From Eledone cirrhosa (Eukaryota): 64,000 nt of DNA. The stretch lies in contig OZ024748.1 of NCBI GenBank assembly GCA_964016885.1, forward strand, positions 30,876,001-30,940,000, given 5' to 3'. A program made the position numbers and the translations under genes. The notes under the pieces were generated by a model. That model was not told where the DNA came from. It saw nothing but the letters and a program-made list of their open reading frames with translations, and did not search any database. Positions 366-10,614 of this stretch are shown here, in pieces (position 1 is the first letter of the stretch; each line of letters opens with the position of its first letter).

Positions 366-677
366 AAAAATTATAATATAATATAATATAATATTATATT
401 ATATTAAAAACAAATAACGAAACGAAATTAAATTTCGCTTCGTTTGTAACTCACTTTTGTATGACTGACGCTTAAACAATTAAGTTAAAAATGTACATCT
501 ACATATGCATACTGAAATACTAGTGTGTATATGAATACACACACGTATACATATGTAGGTGTACCAAGTCTTTCACTGGTCGCTTTACAGTGAGCGGCCC
601 AGCTATTCTGTATGTAAACACACAGACAAACCGGTTTTTAGAGTCATACTGGTTTTTCGGGGGAACACCTTCCCCCT

Positions 678-773
678 ATTCTCCAGAAAGCCAGACAAGG
701 AATATTGAACTAGTTTCGTTGTTGTTACAACTCATCAGCAATATTTACCTATCTACCGGCCTTTCTGGAGAAT
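678..773 (-). ncRNA. Type I hammerhead ribozyme, intact core, minimal palindromic stem III
   Basis: The - strand of 701-745 reads AAUAUUG-CUGAUGA-GUUG-UAACAA-CAAC-GAAA-C-UA-G-U-U-CAAUAUU: 7-bp stem I, CUGAUGA box, 4-bp stem II with a 6-nt loop, GAAA box, C-G closed stem III, NUH = GUU, predicted cut between 708 and 707. Stem I extends through bulges to a 13-bp AUUCUCCAGAAAG/CUUUCUGGAGAAU helix. Confidence 0.88.
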
Positions 774-979
774 TGTAAAAGCACATATCGTTATATGCTT
801 TTTCTACGTGTGTGTATTCATATACACACTAGTATTTCAGTATGCATATGTAGATGTACATTTTTAACTTAATTGTTTAAGCGTCAGTCATACAAAAGTG
901 AGTTACAAACGAAGCGAAATTTAATTTCGTTTCGTTATTTGTTTTTATCGTCTCCGCTGAACCGGTGCGTACTCACACT

Positions 980-1016
980 CTATGCAAATTAGTCTGCCCA
1001 CTACTAATTTTCATAG
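980..1016 (+). promoter_or_regulatory. Octamer motif ATGCAAAT (982-989) inside a 14-bp imperfect hairpin
   Basis: ctatgcaaattagt (980-993) pairs with actaattttcatag (1003-1016) with one mismatch. Function is unproven. Confidence 0.3.
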
Positions 1017-1046
1017 AAAAAGCATATAACGATATGTGCTTTTACA

Positions 1047-1142
1047 ATTCTCCAGAAAGGCCGGTAGATAGGTAAATATTGCTGATGAGTTGTAACAACA
1101 ACGAAACTACTTCAATATTCCTTGTCTGGCTTTCTGGAGAAT
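1047..1142 (+). ncRNA. Type I hammerhead ribozyme, second copy with a stem III G>C change (possibly impaired)
   Basis: 1075-1119: aatattg ctgatga gttg taacaa caac gaaa ctac tt caatatt. Identical to the other copy except C at 1110 where the other has G. Confidence 0.8.
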
Positions 1143-1372
1143 AGGGGGAAGGTGTTCCCCCGAAAAACCAGTATGACTCTAAAAACCGGTTTGTCTGTGT
1201 GTTACATACAGAATAGCTGGGCCGCTCACTGTAAAGCGACCAGTGAAAGACTTGGTACACCTACATATGTATACGTGTGTGTATTCATATACACACTAGT
1301 ATTTCAGTATGCATATGTAGATGTACATTTTTAACTTAATTATTATATTATATTATATTATATAATAATATA

Positions 1373-2756: not shown

Positions 2757-5740
2757 TGGGTTAGGGTCAGAGTTAGGGTTAGTGTTAGTGTTAGGGTTAG
2801 GTTTAGGTTTAGGGTTAGGGTCAGGGTTGGGCTTAAAGCTGGGGTTAGAGTTAGGTTTAGGGTTAGGGTTAGGGTTAGGGTTGGGGTTAGGGTTAGGGTT
2901 AGGGTTGGGGTTAGGATTAGGGTTTGGGTTAGTGTTAGGGTGAGGGTTTGGGTTAGGGTTAGAGTTAGGGATAGTGTTATTGTTAGGGTTAGGTTTAAGG
3001 TTAGGGTCAGGTTTTGGGTTAGGGTTAGGGTTGGGGTTGGGGTTGGAGTTGGGGTTAGTGTTGGGGTTGGAGTTAGGGTTAGTGTTTCGGTCAATTTTAG
3101 GCTTGGGGTTTGGGTTAGGGTTAGGGTTAGGGTTAGGATTTGGGTTAGTCTTAGGGTTGGGGTTAGTGATAGGGTTAGGGTTAGGGTTTCGGTTTGTGTT
3201 AGGGTTAGGGTAAGGTTTTAGGATTTGGGTTAGTGTTAGGGTTGGGGTTAGTGATAGTGTTAGGGTTAGGGTTAGGTTTTGGGTTAGGGTTAGGGTTAGG
3301 GTTAGTGTTTTGGTTTGGGTTAGGGTTAGGGCTAGGGTTTTGGTTTGGGTTAGGGTTAGGGTTAGGTTTAGGATTAGGATTTGGTTTGGGGTTAGGGTTA
3401 GGGTTAGGGTTAGGATTTGAGTTAGTGTTATGGTTGGGGTTAGTGATAGGGTTAGTGTTAGGGTTTGGGTTAGTGTTAGGGTTTGGGTTTGTGTTTGGGT
3501 TAGGGTTATGTTTAGGGTTAATGTTTATGTTAGTGTTAGGTTAAGGATTAGGGTTACGGTTAGGGTTAGGTGTAGGTTTAGTATTCGTGTTTGAGTAAGG
3601 GTTAAGTTAGGGTTTGGGTTTGGGTTAGGGGTAGGTTTAGGGTTAGGGTTTGGGTTAGAATTAGGGGTAGGCTTACGGTTACGGTTAGGGTTAGGGTTAG
3701 GGTTGGGGTTAGGGTTAGGGTTAGGGTTAGGGGTAGGGTTACGGTTACGGTTAGGGTTAGGGTTAGGGTTGGGGTTAGGGTTAGGTTTGGGGTTCCAGTT
3801 AAGATTTGGGTTAGTGTTAGTGTTAGGGTTAAAGTTAGGATTAGGGTTAGGGTTAGGTTTGGGGTTGGGGTTGGGGTTGGGGTTGGGTTGGAGTTGGGGT
3901 TAGTGTTGGGGTTGGAGTTAGGGTTAGTGTTACGGTTAGTGTTAGGTTTGGGGTTTGGATTAAGGGTAGGGTTAGGGTTAGGATTTGGGTTAGTGTTAGG
4001 ATAGGGGTTAGGGTTTGGGTTTGTGTTAGGGTTAGGGTTTGGGTTAGGGTTAGCGTTAGGGTTAGGGTTAGGGTTAGGGTTAGGGTAAGGGTTTTGGTTT
4101 GGGTTAGGGTTAGGGTTAGGTTTAGGATTAGGATTTGGTTTGGGGTTAGTGTTAGGGTTAGGGTTAGTGATAGAGTTAAGGTTAGGGTTAGGGTTTGGGT
4201 TAGTGTTAGGGTTGGGGTTAGTGATAGAGTTAAGGCTAGGGTTAGGGTTTTGGTTAGTGTTAGGGTTTGGGTTTGTGTTTGGGTTAGGGTTATGTTTAGG
4301 GTTAATGTTTATGTTAAGGAGTAGGGTTAGGGTTAGGGTTAGGTGTAGGTTTAGTGTTCGTGTTTGAGTGAGGGTTAAGTTAAGGTTTGGGTTTGGGTTA
4401 GGGGTAGGTTTAGGGTTAGGGTTTGGGTTAGGGTTAGGCGTAGGCTTAGGGTTGGTGTGAGGGGTAGGGTTAGGTTTGGGGTTCCGGTTAAGATTTGGGT
4501 TAGTGTTAGTGTTAGGGTTAAAGTTAGGATTAGGGTTAGGGTAAGGTTTGGGGTTGGGGTTGGGGTTGGGGTTGGGGTTGGGGTTGGGTTGGAGTTGGGG
4601 TTAGTGTTGGGGTTGGAGTTAGGGTTAGTGTTACGGTCAGTGTTAGGTTTGGGGTTTGGATTAGGGGTAGGGTTAGGGTTAGGATTTGGGTTAGTGTTAG
4701 GGTAGGGGTTAGGGTTTGGGTTTGTGTTAGGGTTTGGGTTTGGGTTAGGTTTAGGGTTAGGGTTAGGGTTAGCGTTAGGGTTAGGGTTAGGTTTAGGGTT
4801 GGGGTTAAAGCTGGGGTTAGAGTTAGGTTTAGGGTTTGGGTTTGTGTTAGGGTTAGGGTTGGGGTTAGGGTTAGGGTTAGGGTTGGGGTTAGGGTTAGAG
4901 TTAGCGTTAGGTTTGGGGTTAGGGTTAGGTTTGGGGTTAGGGTTAGGTTTGTGTTAGGGTTAGGGTTAGGTTTTGGGTTAAGGTTAGGGTTAAGTTTTGG
5001 GTTAGCGTTAGCGTTAGAGTTAGAGTTAGGGTTTGGGTTAGGGTTTGAGTTAGGTTTAGAGTTACGGTTAGGGTTAGGGTTTGGGTTAGGGTCAGGGTTA
5101 GGGTTAGTGTTAGGTTTAGGGTTAGGGTTTGGATTAGGGTTTGGATTAGGGTTAGGGTAAGGGTTAGGGTAAGGGTTTTGGTTTTGGTTAAGGTTAGGGT
5201 TAGGTTTAGGATTAGGGTCTGGTTTTGGGTTAGGGTTAGGGTTAGGGTTAGGGTTTGGGTTTGGTTTAGTTTTAGGGTTAGGGATAAGGTTTGGGTTTGG
5301 GTTAGGGTTAAGATTAGGGTTTGGGTTAGGGTTAGAGTTAGGGTTAGGGTTAGGTTAGGATTTGGGTTAGTGTTAGGGTTGGGGTTAGTGATAGGTTTAA
5401 GGTTAGGGTTAGGGTTTGGGTTAGTGTTCGGGTTTAGGTTTTGGTTTGGGTTTGGTTATGTTTAGGGTTAATGTTATGTTTAGGATTAGGGTTAGGTTTA
5501 GGGTTTGTGTTAAGGTTTGGGTTTGTGTTTGGGTTAGGCTTAAGTTAGGGTTTGGGTGTGGGTTAGAGTTAGGGTTAGGGTTAGGGTTTGGGTTAGGATT
5601 AGCGTTAGGGTTAGGGTTGGTGTTGAGGTTAGGGTTAGGTTTAGGGTTAAAGTTGGCGTTAGGGTTAGGGTTAGGGATAGGATTTCGGTTTGGGTTAGTA
5701 TTAGGGTTTGAGTATGGGCTTGGGTTAGTGATAGGGTTAA
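2757..5740 (+). repeat. Degenerate interstitial telomeric array (TTAGGG)n with TTGGGG, TTTGGG, TTAGTG, TTAGGT and other variants
   Basis: About 3 kb in 6-bp phase dominated by TTAGGG; perfect runs are short; non-telomeric sequence lies on both sides. Confidence 0.95.
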
Positions 5741-6002: not shown

Positions 6003-6032
6003 ATTTAATTTAATTTAATTTAATTAATTTAA

Positions 6033-6500
6033 TACCCGGAAATAACCGGAAATACACAGAAACACCGGAAATAGCCCACTGCGCACTGCGCATGCGAAAA
6101 GGTTGGACAGCACTGCGCATGCGCTAAGGTTGGACCGTAGTGCGCAGGCGCGAAGGTGTGACCGTAGTACGCATGCGCGAAGGTCGGACCGCCCAACGCA
6201 TGGGCGAAGGATGGACAGCACTGCGCATGCGCTAAGGCTGGGCTATAGTACGCATGCGCGAAAGTCGGACCGTAGTGCGCATGCGCTAAGGTTGGACCGT
6301 ACTGCGCATGCGCAGGGCGGTCCACCCTTCGCGCACTCGAGGTAGGTCCAACCTTCGCGCATGCGCATTACGGTCCATCCTCGAAACCAGTTTCGTTTCG
6401 TTTGAATTTGTAGGTTCCCCGGTTTCGTCTCGTTTCGGTGTTTCAGGTTCCCCGGTTTCGTTTCGTTTGGTTTTTTAGATACACCGGTTTCGTTTCGTTT
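6033..6500. repeat. Module M1: (CCGGAAATA)-like head, 27-bp TGCGCATGCGC repeats with internal inversion, ~31-bp GGTTTCGTTTCG tail repeats
   Basis: ggttggac recurs at 6101 and 6128 (27 bp); orientation flips at actgcgcatgcgcag 6301-6315. Confidence 0.85.
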
Positions 6501-6931
6501 TTTAAATTAAATTAAATTAAATTAAATTAAATTAAATTAAAATGAATTAAAATAATTAATTAATTAATTAATTAATTAATAATATAAAATAAAATAAAAT
6601 AAAATAAATAAACTGAAATGAAATGAAATAAATTTAATTAATTAATTAAATAATTAATTAAGTAATTAATTAATTAATTATTTAATTTAATTTAATATAT
6701 TTTATTATATTTTAATTTATTTTAATTAATTTAATTAATTAATTAATTAATTTAAATTTAATTTAATTAATTAATTAATTGAATTAATTAATTAAATTAA
6801 ATTTAAATTAATTAATTAATTTATTAAATTATTTAAAACAAAATATAATAAATAAAATAAAATAAATAAAATAAAATAATTAATTTATTAATAAAATAAA
6901 ATAAAATAAAATAAAATAAAATAAAATAAAT

Positions 6932-7835
6932 TTAAATTAAATTAAATTAAATTAAATTAAATTAAATTAAATTAAATTAAATTAAATTAAATTAAATTAA
7001 ATTAAATTAAATTAAATTAAATTAAATTAAATTAAATTAAATTAAATTAAATTAAATTAAATTAAATTAAATTAAATTAAATTAAATTAAATTAAATTAA
7101 ATTAAATTAAATTAAATTAAATTAAATTAAATTAAATTAAATTAAATTAAATTAAATTAAATTAAATTAAATTAAATTAAATTAAATTAAATTAAATTAA
7201 ATTAAATTAAATTAAATTAAATTAAATTAAATTAAATTAAATTAAATTAAATTAAATTAAATTAAATTAAATTAAATTAAATTAAATTAAATTAAATTAA
7301 ATTAAATTAAATTAAATTAAATTAAATTAAATTAAATTAAATTAAATTAAATTAAATTAAATTAAATTAAATTAAATTAAATTAAATTAAATTAAATTAA
7401 ATTAAATTAAATTAAATTAAATTAAATTAAATTAAATTAAATTAAATTAAATTAAATTAAATTAAATTAAATTAAATTAAATTAAATTAAATTAAATTAA
7501 ATTAAATTAAATTAAATTAAATTAAATTAAATTAAATTAAATTAAATTAAATTAAATTAAATTAAATTAAATTAAATTAAATTAAATTAAATTAAATTAA
7601 ATTAAATTAAATTAAATTAAATTAAATTAAATTAAATTAAATTAAATTAAATTAAATTAAATTAAATTAAATTAAATTAAATTAAATTAAATTAAATTAA
7701 ATTAAATTAAATTAAATTAAATTAAATTAAATTAAATTAAATTAAATTAAATTAAATTAAATTAAATTAAATTAAATTAAATTAAATTAAATTAAATTAA
7801 ATTAAATTAAATTAAATTAAATTAAATTAAATTAA
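6932..7835. repeat. Perfect (TTAAA)n pentanucleotide tract, ~900 bp (~180 units)
   Basis: Uninterrupted attaa repeats across 15 sequence lines. Confidence 0.97.
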
Positions 7836-8214
7836 TAAATAAATTAATTATTTTATTTAATTTAATTCATTTTTTTATTTTTATTTTAATTTATTTTAAT
7901 TAATTTAATTAATTAATTAAATTAATTAATTAAATTAATTAATTAAATTAATTAATTAATTAAAATTAAAATAATATAAAATAAAATAAAATAAAATAAA
8001 GTAAAATAAAATAAATTTAATTAATTAATTAATTAATTAATCAATTATTTAAATTTTTTTATTTTATTTTTTTTTATTAATAAATAAATAAATTAATTAT
8101 TTTAATTCATTTTAATTTAATTTTATTTAATTTTATTTTATTTTATTTAATCAAATTTACTTTAATTTAATTTAATTTAATTTAATTTAATTTAATTTAA
8201 TTTAATTTAATTTA

Positions 8215-8601
8215 AAAAACGAAACGAAACCGGGGAACCTAAAAAACCCCAGGAAACGAAACCGGGGAATCTAAAGAACCAAACGAAATGAAACCGGGGT
8301 ACCTAAAAAACCGAAAAGAGACGGAACCGGGGAACCTAAAAATCCAAACGAAACGAAACTGCTTTCCAGGTTGGAACGTAGTGCGCATGCGCGAAGGTTG
8401 TACAGCACTGCGCATGCGCAGTACGGTCCAACCTTAGCGCATGGGCACTACGGTCCAACCTTCGCGCATGCGCACTACGGTTCTATCTCGAAACCAGTTT
8501 CGTTTCGTTCGGTTTTTTAGGTTCACCGGTTTAGTCTCATTTCGGTCTTTTAGGTTTCCCGGTTTCGTTTGGTTTTTTAGGTACCCCGGTTTCGTTTCGT
8601 C
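8215..8601. repeat. Module P2: imperfect fold-back (tail-27mers-tail), MITE/foldback-like
   Basis: Left arm aaacgaaacgaaaccggggaacctaaaaaacc mirrors right arm ggttttttaggtaccccggtttcgtttcgt; pivot is the perfect 16-bp palindrome ACTGCGCATGCGCAGT at 8407-8422; flanks are (TTTAA)n and (TTAAA)n. Confidence 0.8.
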
Positions 8602-8643
8602 TTTTAAATTAAATTAAATTAAATTAAATTAAATAAAATTAAA

Positions 8644-8892
8644 TAACCGGATATACCCGGAAATAGCCCACTGCGCACTGCGCATGCGCCAAGGTTGGAC
8701 AGCACTACGCATACGCTAAGGTTGGACCATAGTGAGCATGTGCGAAGGTTGGACCGTAATGCGCATACGCTAAGGTTGGACCTACTGCGCATGGGCAGTG
8801 CTGTGCAAACTTGGCACATGCCCAGTGCCGTCCAACCTTCGTGCATGCGCCGTACGCTCCAACCTTCAAGCATGCGCACTACGGTCCAACGT
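8644..8892. repeat. Module M3: head plus 27-bp repeats, tail absent
   Basis: ccggaaatagcccactgcgcactgcgcatgcg start as in M1; flips near 8784-8799. Confidence 0.82.
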
Positions 8893-9135
8893 TAATTTAA
8901 TTAATTTAATTAATTAATTAATCAATTAAATTAATTAATTAAATTAAATTTAAATTAATTAATTAATTATTTAATTAAATAAAATAAAAATAAAATAAAA
9001 TAAAATAAAATATAATAAAATAAAATAGAATAAAATAAAATAAAATAAAATAAGTAAAATAAAATAAAATAAAATAAAAGAATTAATTAATTAATTAATT
9101 TAATTAATTTAATTTAATTTAATTTAATTTAATTT

Positions 9136-9651
9136 ACTACCCGGAAATAACAGGGAAATACCCGGAAATACCCGGAAACACCCGGAAATATTCCACTGCG
9201 CACTGCGCATGCGCCAAGGTTGGACAGCACTGCGCATGCGCTAAGGTTGGACCGTAGTGCGCATGCGAGAAGGTCGTACCGTACTGCGCATGCGCGAAGA
9301 TCGGACCGCACAGCGCATGCACGAAGGTTGGACAGCACTGCGCACGCGCTAAGGTTGGACTATAGGGCGCATGCGCGAAGGTTGGAATGTAGTGCGCATG
9401 CGCTAAGGTTGGACCGTACTGCGCATGCGAAGTGCTATTCCAAACTTGGCGCATGCGGCGCAGTGCCGCCCAACCTTCGTGCATGCGCGATACGGTCCAA
9501 CCTTCGCGCATGCGCACTACGGTCCAACCTCGAAACCAGTTTCGTGTCATTTGGTTTTTTGAGGTTACCTGGTTTCATCTAGTTTCGGTTTTCTAGGATC
9601 CCTGGTTTCGTTTCGTTTGGTTTTTTAGGTACCCCGGTTTCGTTTCGTTTC
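9136..9651. repeat. Module M4: complete head-27mer-tail copy
   Basis: Same order as M1; flips near 9418-9433; tail starts cctcgaaaccagtttcg. Confidence 0.85.
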
Positions 9652-10095
9652 TTAAATTAAATTAAATTAAATTAAATTAAATTAAATTAAATTAAATTAA
9701 ATTAAATTAAATTAAATTAAATTAAATTAAACTAAATTAAATTAAAATAATTAATTAATTAATTAATATAATGAAATAAAATAACATAAAATAAAATAAA
9801 ATAGAATAAAATAAAATAAAATAAATTTAATTAATGAATTAATTAAATAATTTATTAATTAATAAATTAATAATTTAATTTAATTTAATTTATTTTATTT
9901 TATTTTAATTTATTTTAATTAATTTAATTAATTAATTAATTAATTTAAATTTAATTAAATTAATTAATTAATTAAATTATTTAAAATAAAATAAAATATA
10001 ATAATATATAATAAAATAAATAAAATAAAATAATTAATTAATTAATTAATTAATTAATAAAATAAAATAAAATAAAATAAAATAAAATAAAATAA

Positions 10096-10250
10096 ATTGA
10101 ATTGAATTGAATTGAGTTGAGTTGAGTTGAGTTGAGTTGAGTTGAGTTGAGTTGAGTTGAGTTGAGTTGAGTTGAGTTGAGTTGAGTTGAGTTGAGTTGA
10201 GTTGAGTTGAGTTGAGTTGAGTTGAGTGGAAACGAAACGAAACGAAACGA
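10096..10250. repeat. In-phase pentamer series (ATTGA)4-(GTTGA)22-GTGGA-(AACGA)4
   Basis: Counted directly at 10096-10115, 10116-10225, 10226-10230 and 10231-10250. Confidence 0.92.
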
Positions 10251-10315
10251 AATAAATTTAATTAATTAATTAATTAGTTAATTTAATTAATTAAATTTAA
10301 TTTAATTTAATTTAA

Positions 10316-10614
10316 TACTCGGCAATAACCGGAAATACCCGGAAACACCCGGAAATATTCCACTGCGCACTGCGCATGCGCCAAGGCTGAACAGTACTGC
10401 GCATGCGCTAAGGTTGGACCGTAGTGCGTTGCGCGGAGGTCGGACCGTACTGCGCATGCGCGAAGATCGGACCGCACAGCGCATGCGCGAAGGTTGGACA
10501 GCACTGCGCATGCGCGAATGTCAGACCATAGTGCGCATGCGCTAAGGTTGGACCGTACTGCGCATGCGCACTGCTGTCCAAACTTAGCGCATGCGCACTA
10601 CGGTCCAACCTTAG
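10316..10614. repeat. Module M5: head plus 27-bp repeats, fused directly to the 32-bp satellite
   Basis: Flips at 10557-10572; ends cggtccaaccttag|acttaaacc. Confidence 0.85.

Follow-up and report, generated by a model that had tools for sequence, protein, structure and literature searches.

How does an RNA that encodes no protein come to lie in a genome as a partial tandem joined head-to-head to an inverted copy of itself, with both of its 3' ends in the same AT-rich microsatellite? The question is raised by a repeat at positions 405–1341 of a 64,000-nucleotide stretch of the Eledone cirrhosa genome (contig OZ024748.1, positions 30,876,001 to 30,940,000; hereafter the window, to which all positions refer). 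We think it likely that a hammerhead-containing RNA lacking an open reading frame (ORF) was inserted here in trans by an endonuclease-bearing Penelope-like element (PLE), through two-ended priming and in a single recent retrotransposition event.

Anatomy of the insertion and its microsatellite target

The repeat is a real, young insertion, built from a 467-bp unit (GC 0.38) in which segments A, B and C can be distinguished (Table 1). The region 805–1341 reads A-C-B-A(1–70), amounting to 1.15 units in direct tandem, and 405–806 is the reverse complement of B plus A. This order had been reported in a preliminary description of the locus, together with the claim that the inverted copy holds the whole unit except the 66-bp segment C; the coordinates proved exact to the base, and C indeed occurs only once. 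The A segments at 405–547 and 805–947 are exact reverse complements (143/143), and A is identical across all three copies over their common length. Two further inverted pairings join 617–806 with 1014–1203 and 475–617 with 1202–1344. All these repeats are far above chance (blastn E-value of 6e-71 for A). Inverted and direct copies are 99.5% identical; two of 402 columns differ, and these lie in B, one being a substitution (1110 versus 710) and the other a single-nucleotide indel near 1202/617.

Table 1. Features of the insertion and its target in window coordinates; both matches to Rfam RF02275 are under its gathering score of 52.
Feature	Positions	Strand	Remarks
Left target microsatellite, (TATAA)4 then (TATTA)3	372..406		
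Inverted copy, B+A, 402 nt	405..806	-	RNA-sense 3' end at 405, pointing outward
73-nt extension ("tail", A71–A143), left terminus only	405..477	-	13-bp hairpin, then T run; fold z -3.3 for 405–476
Type I hammerhead, HH9-like, intact 6-nt palindromic helix III	685..756	-	Predicted cut between 708 and 707; RF02275 38.6 bits, E 1e-7
Inversion junction, head-to-head, TA common to both copies	805..806		Overlap extends no further
Segment A, 143 nt, upstream partial-tandem copy, pseudo-LTR-like	805..947	+	Tail at 875–947
Segment C, 66 nt, single copy	948..1013	+	
Segment B, 258 nt, series of hairpins including hammerhead on long stem I	1014..1271	+	
Second hammerhead copy	1064..1135	+	Core from 1082, predicted cut after 1112; RF02275 32.8 bits, E 7.6e-6
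A(1–70), right terminus without tail	1272..1341	+	70/70 identical to 805–874
Right target microsatellite, (TATTA)4 and further AT sequence	1341..1372		In phase with left tract

The repeat has no evident coding capacity. Among the 15 stop-to-stop frames of at least 40 amino acids in 1–2100 (the longest of 84), none was an ORF for a reverse transcriptase (RT) or GIY-YIG endonuclease; a protein-level search with the 84-residue frame at 524–775, which has little power for non-coding repeats, returned no homologue. No RT gene was found near the element or matched to it, and so the mobilizing enzyme is one that we infer. Among the blastn matches listed for the 64-kb window there was no second copy of 405–1341, the others being self-matches or chance-level or motif matches of at most 30 nt. 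The direct part (805–1341) had no match in 72,556 plasmid and 50,697 phage records. The window contained no tRNA genes, and sigma-70-like sites, a type not applicable to an animal genome, numbered 4 against 4.4 expected.

Both outer ends lie in an AT pentamer microsatellite, as the preliminary description had it, and when the insert was removed in silico the TATTA phase was unbroken. Positions 392–406 and 1341–1355 form a perfect 15-bp direct repeat, (TATTA)3, made of the microsatellite itself. This repeat may hide a target-site duplication (TSD), for which lengths of 0, 5, 10 or 15 bp are indistinguishable. The earlier remark that there was no obvious TSD carries little weight, as a duplication of up to 15 bp may be hidden in the microsatellite rather than absent. 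TSDs are also described as hard to see for microsatellite-targeting PLEs (PMC8557442). The RNA 3' ends both face outward into in-phase (TATTA)n, the left being 73 nt longer than the right, and neither terminus has an A tract in the RNA sense. The two presumed start sites, A70 and A143, are represented by one terminus each, and the target preference by this one locus.

The surroundings are themselves repetitive. The left flank is a 20-bp satellite (1–370, 18.5 copies, 76% match). On the right lies a SINE-like repeat (1373–1557), which may resemble an octopus SINE, with a 5'-truncated second copy at 1692–1802 (102/110 identical); each is followed by (ATTAT)n, and such tails may supply microsatellite targets. 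Protein-level searches with two frames of this repeat, again of little power for non-coding repeats, gave nothing. A second, older and hammerhead-less repeat family occupies 6031–10610 and consists of 10-mer, 27-mer and 32-mer modules in several partial copies that are approximately 73–91% alike. It includes a head-to-head inverted pair at 8217–8606 (75% over 509 nt), both ends of which run into (TTAAA)n, facing outward as in 405–1341. A 12-nt T-rich motif at the end of A (925–936 and 416–427) is common to second-family ends near 6488, 8220, 8590 and 9638, where it sits shortly before AT microsatellite; 68 of 5000 shuffles reached this degree of sharing in a post hoc test. The motif is possibly a 3' signal common to both families. 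It had no match in the 584,131 characters of the PMC8557442 supplement, which may hold no DNA sequences. Two tracts stand out amid otherwise degenerate repeats: a long run of (TTAAA)n (6502–8040), nearly perfect over some 900 bp at its core, and (TTGAG)26 at 10097–10227, which is likewise near-perfect.

A hammerhead motif in a strongly structured RNA

Each strand of the insertion carries one hammerhead, and the whole catalytic core is present in both. The 7-bp helix I is prolonged by a long stem (z about -5 in both copies, 0/200 shuffles), and helix II has 4–5 bp. The cut in the right copy is placed at a GUU triplet, according to hammerhead numbering and triplet rules. In the left copy all six helix III dimer pairs can form (6/6), whereas the substitution at 1110 leaves four in the right copy (4/6), and the right ribozyme is therefore probably impaired. 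A short palindromic helix III is described as requiring a dimer (PMC4209133). The minimum-energy structure given by ViennaRNA contained neither the hammerhead core nor the dimer; the ribozyme assignment is based on the Rfam alignment and on motif reading, and self-cleavage is a prediction.

The ribozyme sets the sense of the RNA, and hence the copies are head-to-head with both 3' ends outward, 229 and 302 nt beyond the predicted cut and in AT microsatellite. Both copies extend through the cut, which suggests that the template RNA was either uncut or re-ligated. The 467-nt unit folds far better than shuffled sequences (z -9.2, 0/100), and so does the opposite strand (z -8.2). Segment C is no more structured than shuffles, 319 of 1000 folding as well. 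It contains an octamer-type 8-mer within a hairpin (982–989), an 8-mer also contained in 125 of 5000 shuffles; newt hammerhead satellite 2 uses an snRNA-type promoter.

In the rest of the window (2000–64000), an Rfam search at an E-value of 0.01 detected no hammerhead; its two matches were both to miRNA models, far under their gathering scores. Matches to miRNA families in the scan that gave the two hammerheads were rejected as AT/GT-rich hairpins far below the gathering scores.

Routes to a head-to-head insertion

The geometry had previously been recognized as Penelope-type, and this identification is well founded: the partial tandem, the inverted 5'-truncated copy, the one-sided tail and the microsatellite target all match published endonuclease-bearing PLEs. 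In PLE insertions, as described in PMC8557442, a full copy is preceded by a truncated copy, often with an adjacent inverted 5'-truncated copy at the 5' end, and a tail of 30–40 bp is found at one end only; the layout of our locus agrees with the figure given there, and the same geometry of endonuclease-bearing PLEs appears in PMC3846280. Pairs of hammerheads 100–700 bp apart on opposite strands, linked to truncated PLEs, are described in Schistosoma (PMC4209133). In AT-rich DNA (5'-ATT-3') the purified anole PLE protein, a predicted dimer, cleaves both strands and extends them; it begins synthesis at either of two internal positions of the RNA, the stretch between which is the tail, and it uses unprocessed RNA, ribozyme cleavage being unneeded (PMC11167929).

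What is directly observed at the locus is its geometry, a ribozyme motif, an absence of coding capacity and an AT target that stays in phase; from these we infer the further steps, including the action of a Penelope RT and endonuclease. A GIY-YIG endonuclease would make a double-strand cut in (TATTA)n, staggered by 0–15 bp, and each DNA 3' end would prime reverse transcription on RNA that was uncut by the ribozyme or re-ligated. Synthesis would begin at A143 from the left end and, 73 nt farther upstream, at A70 from the right end, a pattern reminiscent of the paired start sites by which the PLE tail is defined. The left cDNA would measure 402 nt. The right cDNA, of 537 nt, would begin at A70 and extend upstream through B and C into another A, the RT having either read through a multimeric or circular RNA or jumped between templates. 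The two cDNA ends would then be joined head-to-head at the TA and filled in. Against two-ended priming by a PLE stand the single locus, the lack of a partner enzyme and a tail of 73 nt, about twice the published 30–40 nt; nor does the distribution of the two copy differences between B and A (Fisher p 0.50) demonstrate two templates.

An alternative that we regard as possible, if rather unlikely, retains the PLE machinery and differs in the template: the pieces would be three 5'-truncated 3' ends (143, 394 and 402 nt) of a longer autonomous PLE, and the A143/C1 joint would be a template jump. It is compatible with two-ended priming and, given that the PLE mechanism is right, may apply in a sizeable minority of cases. 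The start of segment C (C1) is set only by where the partner of the inverted copy ends, which leaves truncated 3' ends as an equally good reading of the three pieces. Most PLE insertions are 5'-truncated and give rise to tandems like this one (PMC8557442), and A alone is directly repeated here. Nothing marked segment C as a native part of the unit, since its pairing with the tail (reached by 226 of 300 shuffles) and its folding (matched by 319 of 1000) were both at the level of shuffles. On the other hand, the hammerhead is of the canonical HH9-like type, which PMC7229834 ties to retrozymes, tying the minimal type to metazoan PLEs (see also PMC4209133), and the entire 467 nt folds far above shuffles (z -9.2), though the other strand does so too (z -8.2).

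Whichever template was used, the inversion junction bears on how the two arms were made. In the preliminary description the TA was interpreted as a microhomology at which the RT had switched template. The TA at 805–806 does belong to both copies. However, an overlap of at least 2 nt occurs at 17% of the 218,089 possible inverted junctions of the unit (at least 1 nt at 46%, at least 3 nt at 6%), which makes the TA compatible with annealing but no evidence for it. An overlap at chance level does not establish a switch at the TA, and priming from two ends accounts for the layout no less well. Self-priming or template switching by one RT on one molecule, the mechanism preferred for PLE inversions in PMC3846280 with an antisense template, is improbable in our case. 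Palindromes are reported at PLE inverted junctions (PMC3846280), and B1 lies in the loop of a 5-bp hairpin, as do 9% of unit positions. But no palindrome spans the actual junction, the arms start at different unit positions (A1 versus B1) where a snap-back would give a near-perfect mirror, and A1 has only a 3-bp stem, present at 28% of positions. Quasi-palindromes at the four breakpoints are altogether unremarkable, the same stem being found at 9%, 9%, 28% and 98% of positions.

A rearrangement of an existing tandem array at the DNA level (fork stalling and template switching, or inversion plus deletion) or an assembly or library chimera is quite improbable. The surroundings are satellite-rich and hard to assemble, the copies are 99.5% identical, and PLE inverted structures are known to trouble assemblers (PMC8557442). 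Yet the left copy joins B to a full A, an order that is not contiguous on the plus strand, so that it is not a simple fold-back and a fold-back artefact is unlikely. The arms also differ at two sites, both outer ends lie in the same microsatellite phase, and at least two switches would be needed.

Twin priming of the L1 kind, by a LINE acting on a single multimeric RNA, is in our view very improbable. It too would yield 5' inversions whose junctions show short overlaps (PMC2912911), and the adjoining SINE-like repeat hints at past activity of LINE machinery in this AT tract. The insertion has no poly(A) tail, however, and no short-repeat tail distinguishable from the target; such priming would call for a template of no less than 1077 nt, of which 139 nt are skipped, or of 1262 nt, of which 324 are skipped, or else for a 143-nt overlap; and the hammerhead and the one-sided tail point to PLEs.

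The distance of about 1.4 kb to a TTAGGG array, given earlier as part of a suggested link to the endonuclease-less, telomere-associated Athena elements and Terminons, was accurate (1417 bp from the element to the start of the array at 2758–5739); the link itself was not borne out. Such elements do carry hammerheads (PMC6431247), but attachment of this type, which is described as needing reverse-complement telomeric repeats right after the 3' hammerhead (PMC6431247; PMC8557442), is refuted for this copy, as there are 0 TTAGGG or CCCTAA hexamers in 305–1441, the 3' ends lie in AT microsatellite, and the array is degenerate and interstitial. Of the 50 hexamers that 300 nt of it could hold, 12–20 are perfect, with no more than 5 of these in succession, and the 58 kb beyond it consist of AT tracts, a further repeat family and a 32-mer satellite in reverse orientation. 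The TTAGGG-type array plays no part in the insertion. In Xenopus, multimeric retrozymes are reported to be concentrated at the ends and centres of chromosomes (bioRxiv 10.64898/2026.07.22.740005), and the repeat-rich neighbourhood thus needs no telomere mechanism. The 32-mer satellite is telomere-like; it lies on the plus strand at 2022–2754 and is reversed throughout the final 53 kb (10610–63969). The two orientations face each other across 5.7–10.6 kb, an arrangement that resembles an old fusion or inversion point.

Relation to Penelope-like elements and retrozymes

As an example of PLE insertion geometry, the locus is a clean, fresh instance of a process already known, and one copy alone repeats a pattern already in print. 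What may be new is the combination of an ORF-less unit of retrozyme size, a canonical hammerhead, the whole PLE signature and a 73-nt tail. The literature listings covered, which included few subscription papers, showed no earlier description of this repeat family. The origin of PLE tandem and inverted structures is still called undefined in PMC8557442, and mobilization of animal retrozymes by PLEs is put forward as a hypothesis, with a mechanism that "remains to be elucidated" (bioRxiv 10.64898/2026.07.22.740005).

We tentatively raise the possibility, which we hold to be doubtful, that the 467-bp unit is a true retrozyme with a circular or multimeric RNA, and that every mark of integration by a trans-acting Penelope protein is preserved at the locus, namely two cDNAs, one primed from each end of a single cut, and two fixed start sites 73 nt apart. 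In its boldest form, the hammerhead-less family at 6031–10610 would share both the 3' signal and the enzyme. Because a very young and very short insertion displays both termini and the junction in less than 1 kb, a family of such insertions would be a good natural data set. If the proposal is true, such a family would tie retrozyme mobilization directly to PLE enzymes, a hypothesis put forward in the 2020 and 2026 papers, and junction statistics could decide between two-ended priming and self-priming for PLE inversions.

Several known systems share some of these features. L1 twin-priming inversions also involve two cDNAs primed from two target ends and joined by a short overlap (PMC2912911); unlike them, the unit has no poly(A), and its two arms contain one and the same sequence instead of neighbouring parts of an RNA. 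Athena elements and Terminons similarly have a hammerhead near the 3' end, whereas in our unit no reverse-complement telomeric repeats follow the ribozyme and there is no joining to telomeric repeats. Naiad and Chlamys PLEs, including the non-autonomous Chlamys element MRC1, show tandem and inverted insertions, a microsatellite bias ((TA)n in Naiads) and non-autonomous derivatives with pLTRs; in contrast to the Naiads, which have no canonical hammerheads in the account of PMC8557442, the unit carries one. The same account describes cephalopod Naiads as preferring (TA)n, long inactive and without canonical hammerheads. The TTAGGG-type repeats and the kind of hammerhead seen in the window are features that indicate an animal genome. 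In Octopus vulgaris, recently active Penelope-like families are reported (31 families, 336 insertions; PMC13282606).

The metazoan non-LTR retrozymes of coral, mussel, axolotl and Xenopus (PMC7229834; bioRxiv 10.64898/2026.07.22.740005) resemble the unit in being ORF-less, strongly self-paired and a few hundred bases long, with a canonical type I hammerhead, a palindromic helix III and a GC content below 50% (38% in the unit). Its 467 bp are just above the 150–450 bp given for retrozymes in PMC7229834 and within the 51–972 bp of bioRxiv 10.64898/2026.07.22.740005. It departs from them in having 1.15 units in direct tandem and its two hammerheads on opposite strands. To count as active, a retrozyme should have two or more units in uninterrupted tandem, every one with its hammerhead complete (bioRxiv 10.64898/2026.07.22.740005); here there is one hammerhead per strand.

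The closest systems are the endonuclease-bearing PLEs (Penelope/Poseidon, Neptune and Nematis; Pen2a_Av of Adineta vaga and PAc of Anolis). Several features of the unit differ from theirs: it has no RT/GIY-YIG ORF, its tail is 73 nt versus 30–40, its inversion overlap is 2 nt versus 15 nt, and its hammerhead is canonical versus minimal. The 467-bp unit is not an autonomous PLE, having no ORF, but it behaves like a PLE insertion, and it has in common with these elements the partial tandem with an adjacent inverted 5'-truncated copy, the extension at one end only, a type I hammerhead, an AT-rich target and a TSD that is hard to see in microsatellite.
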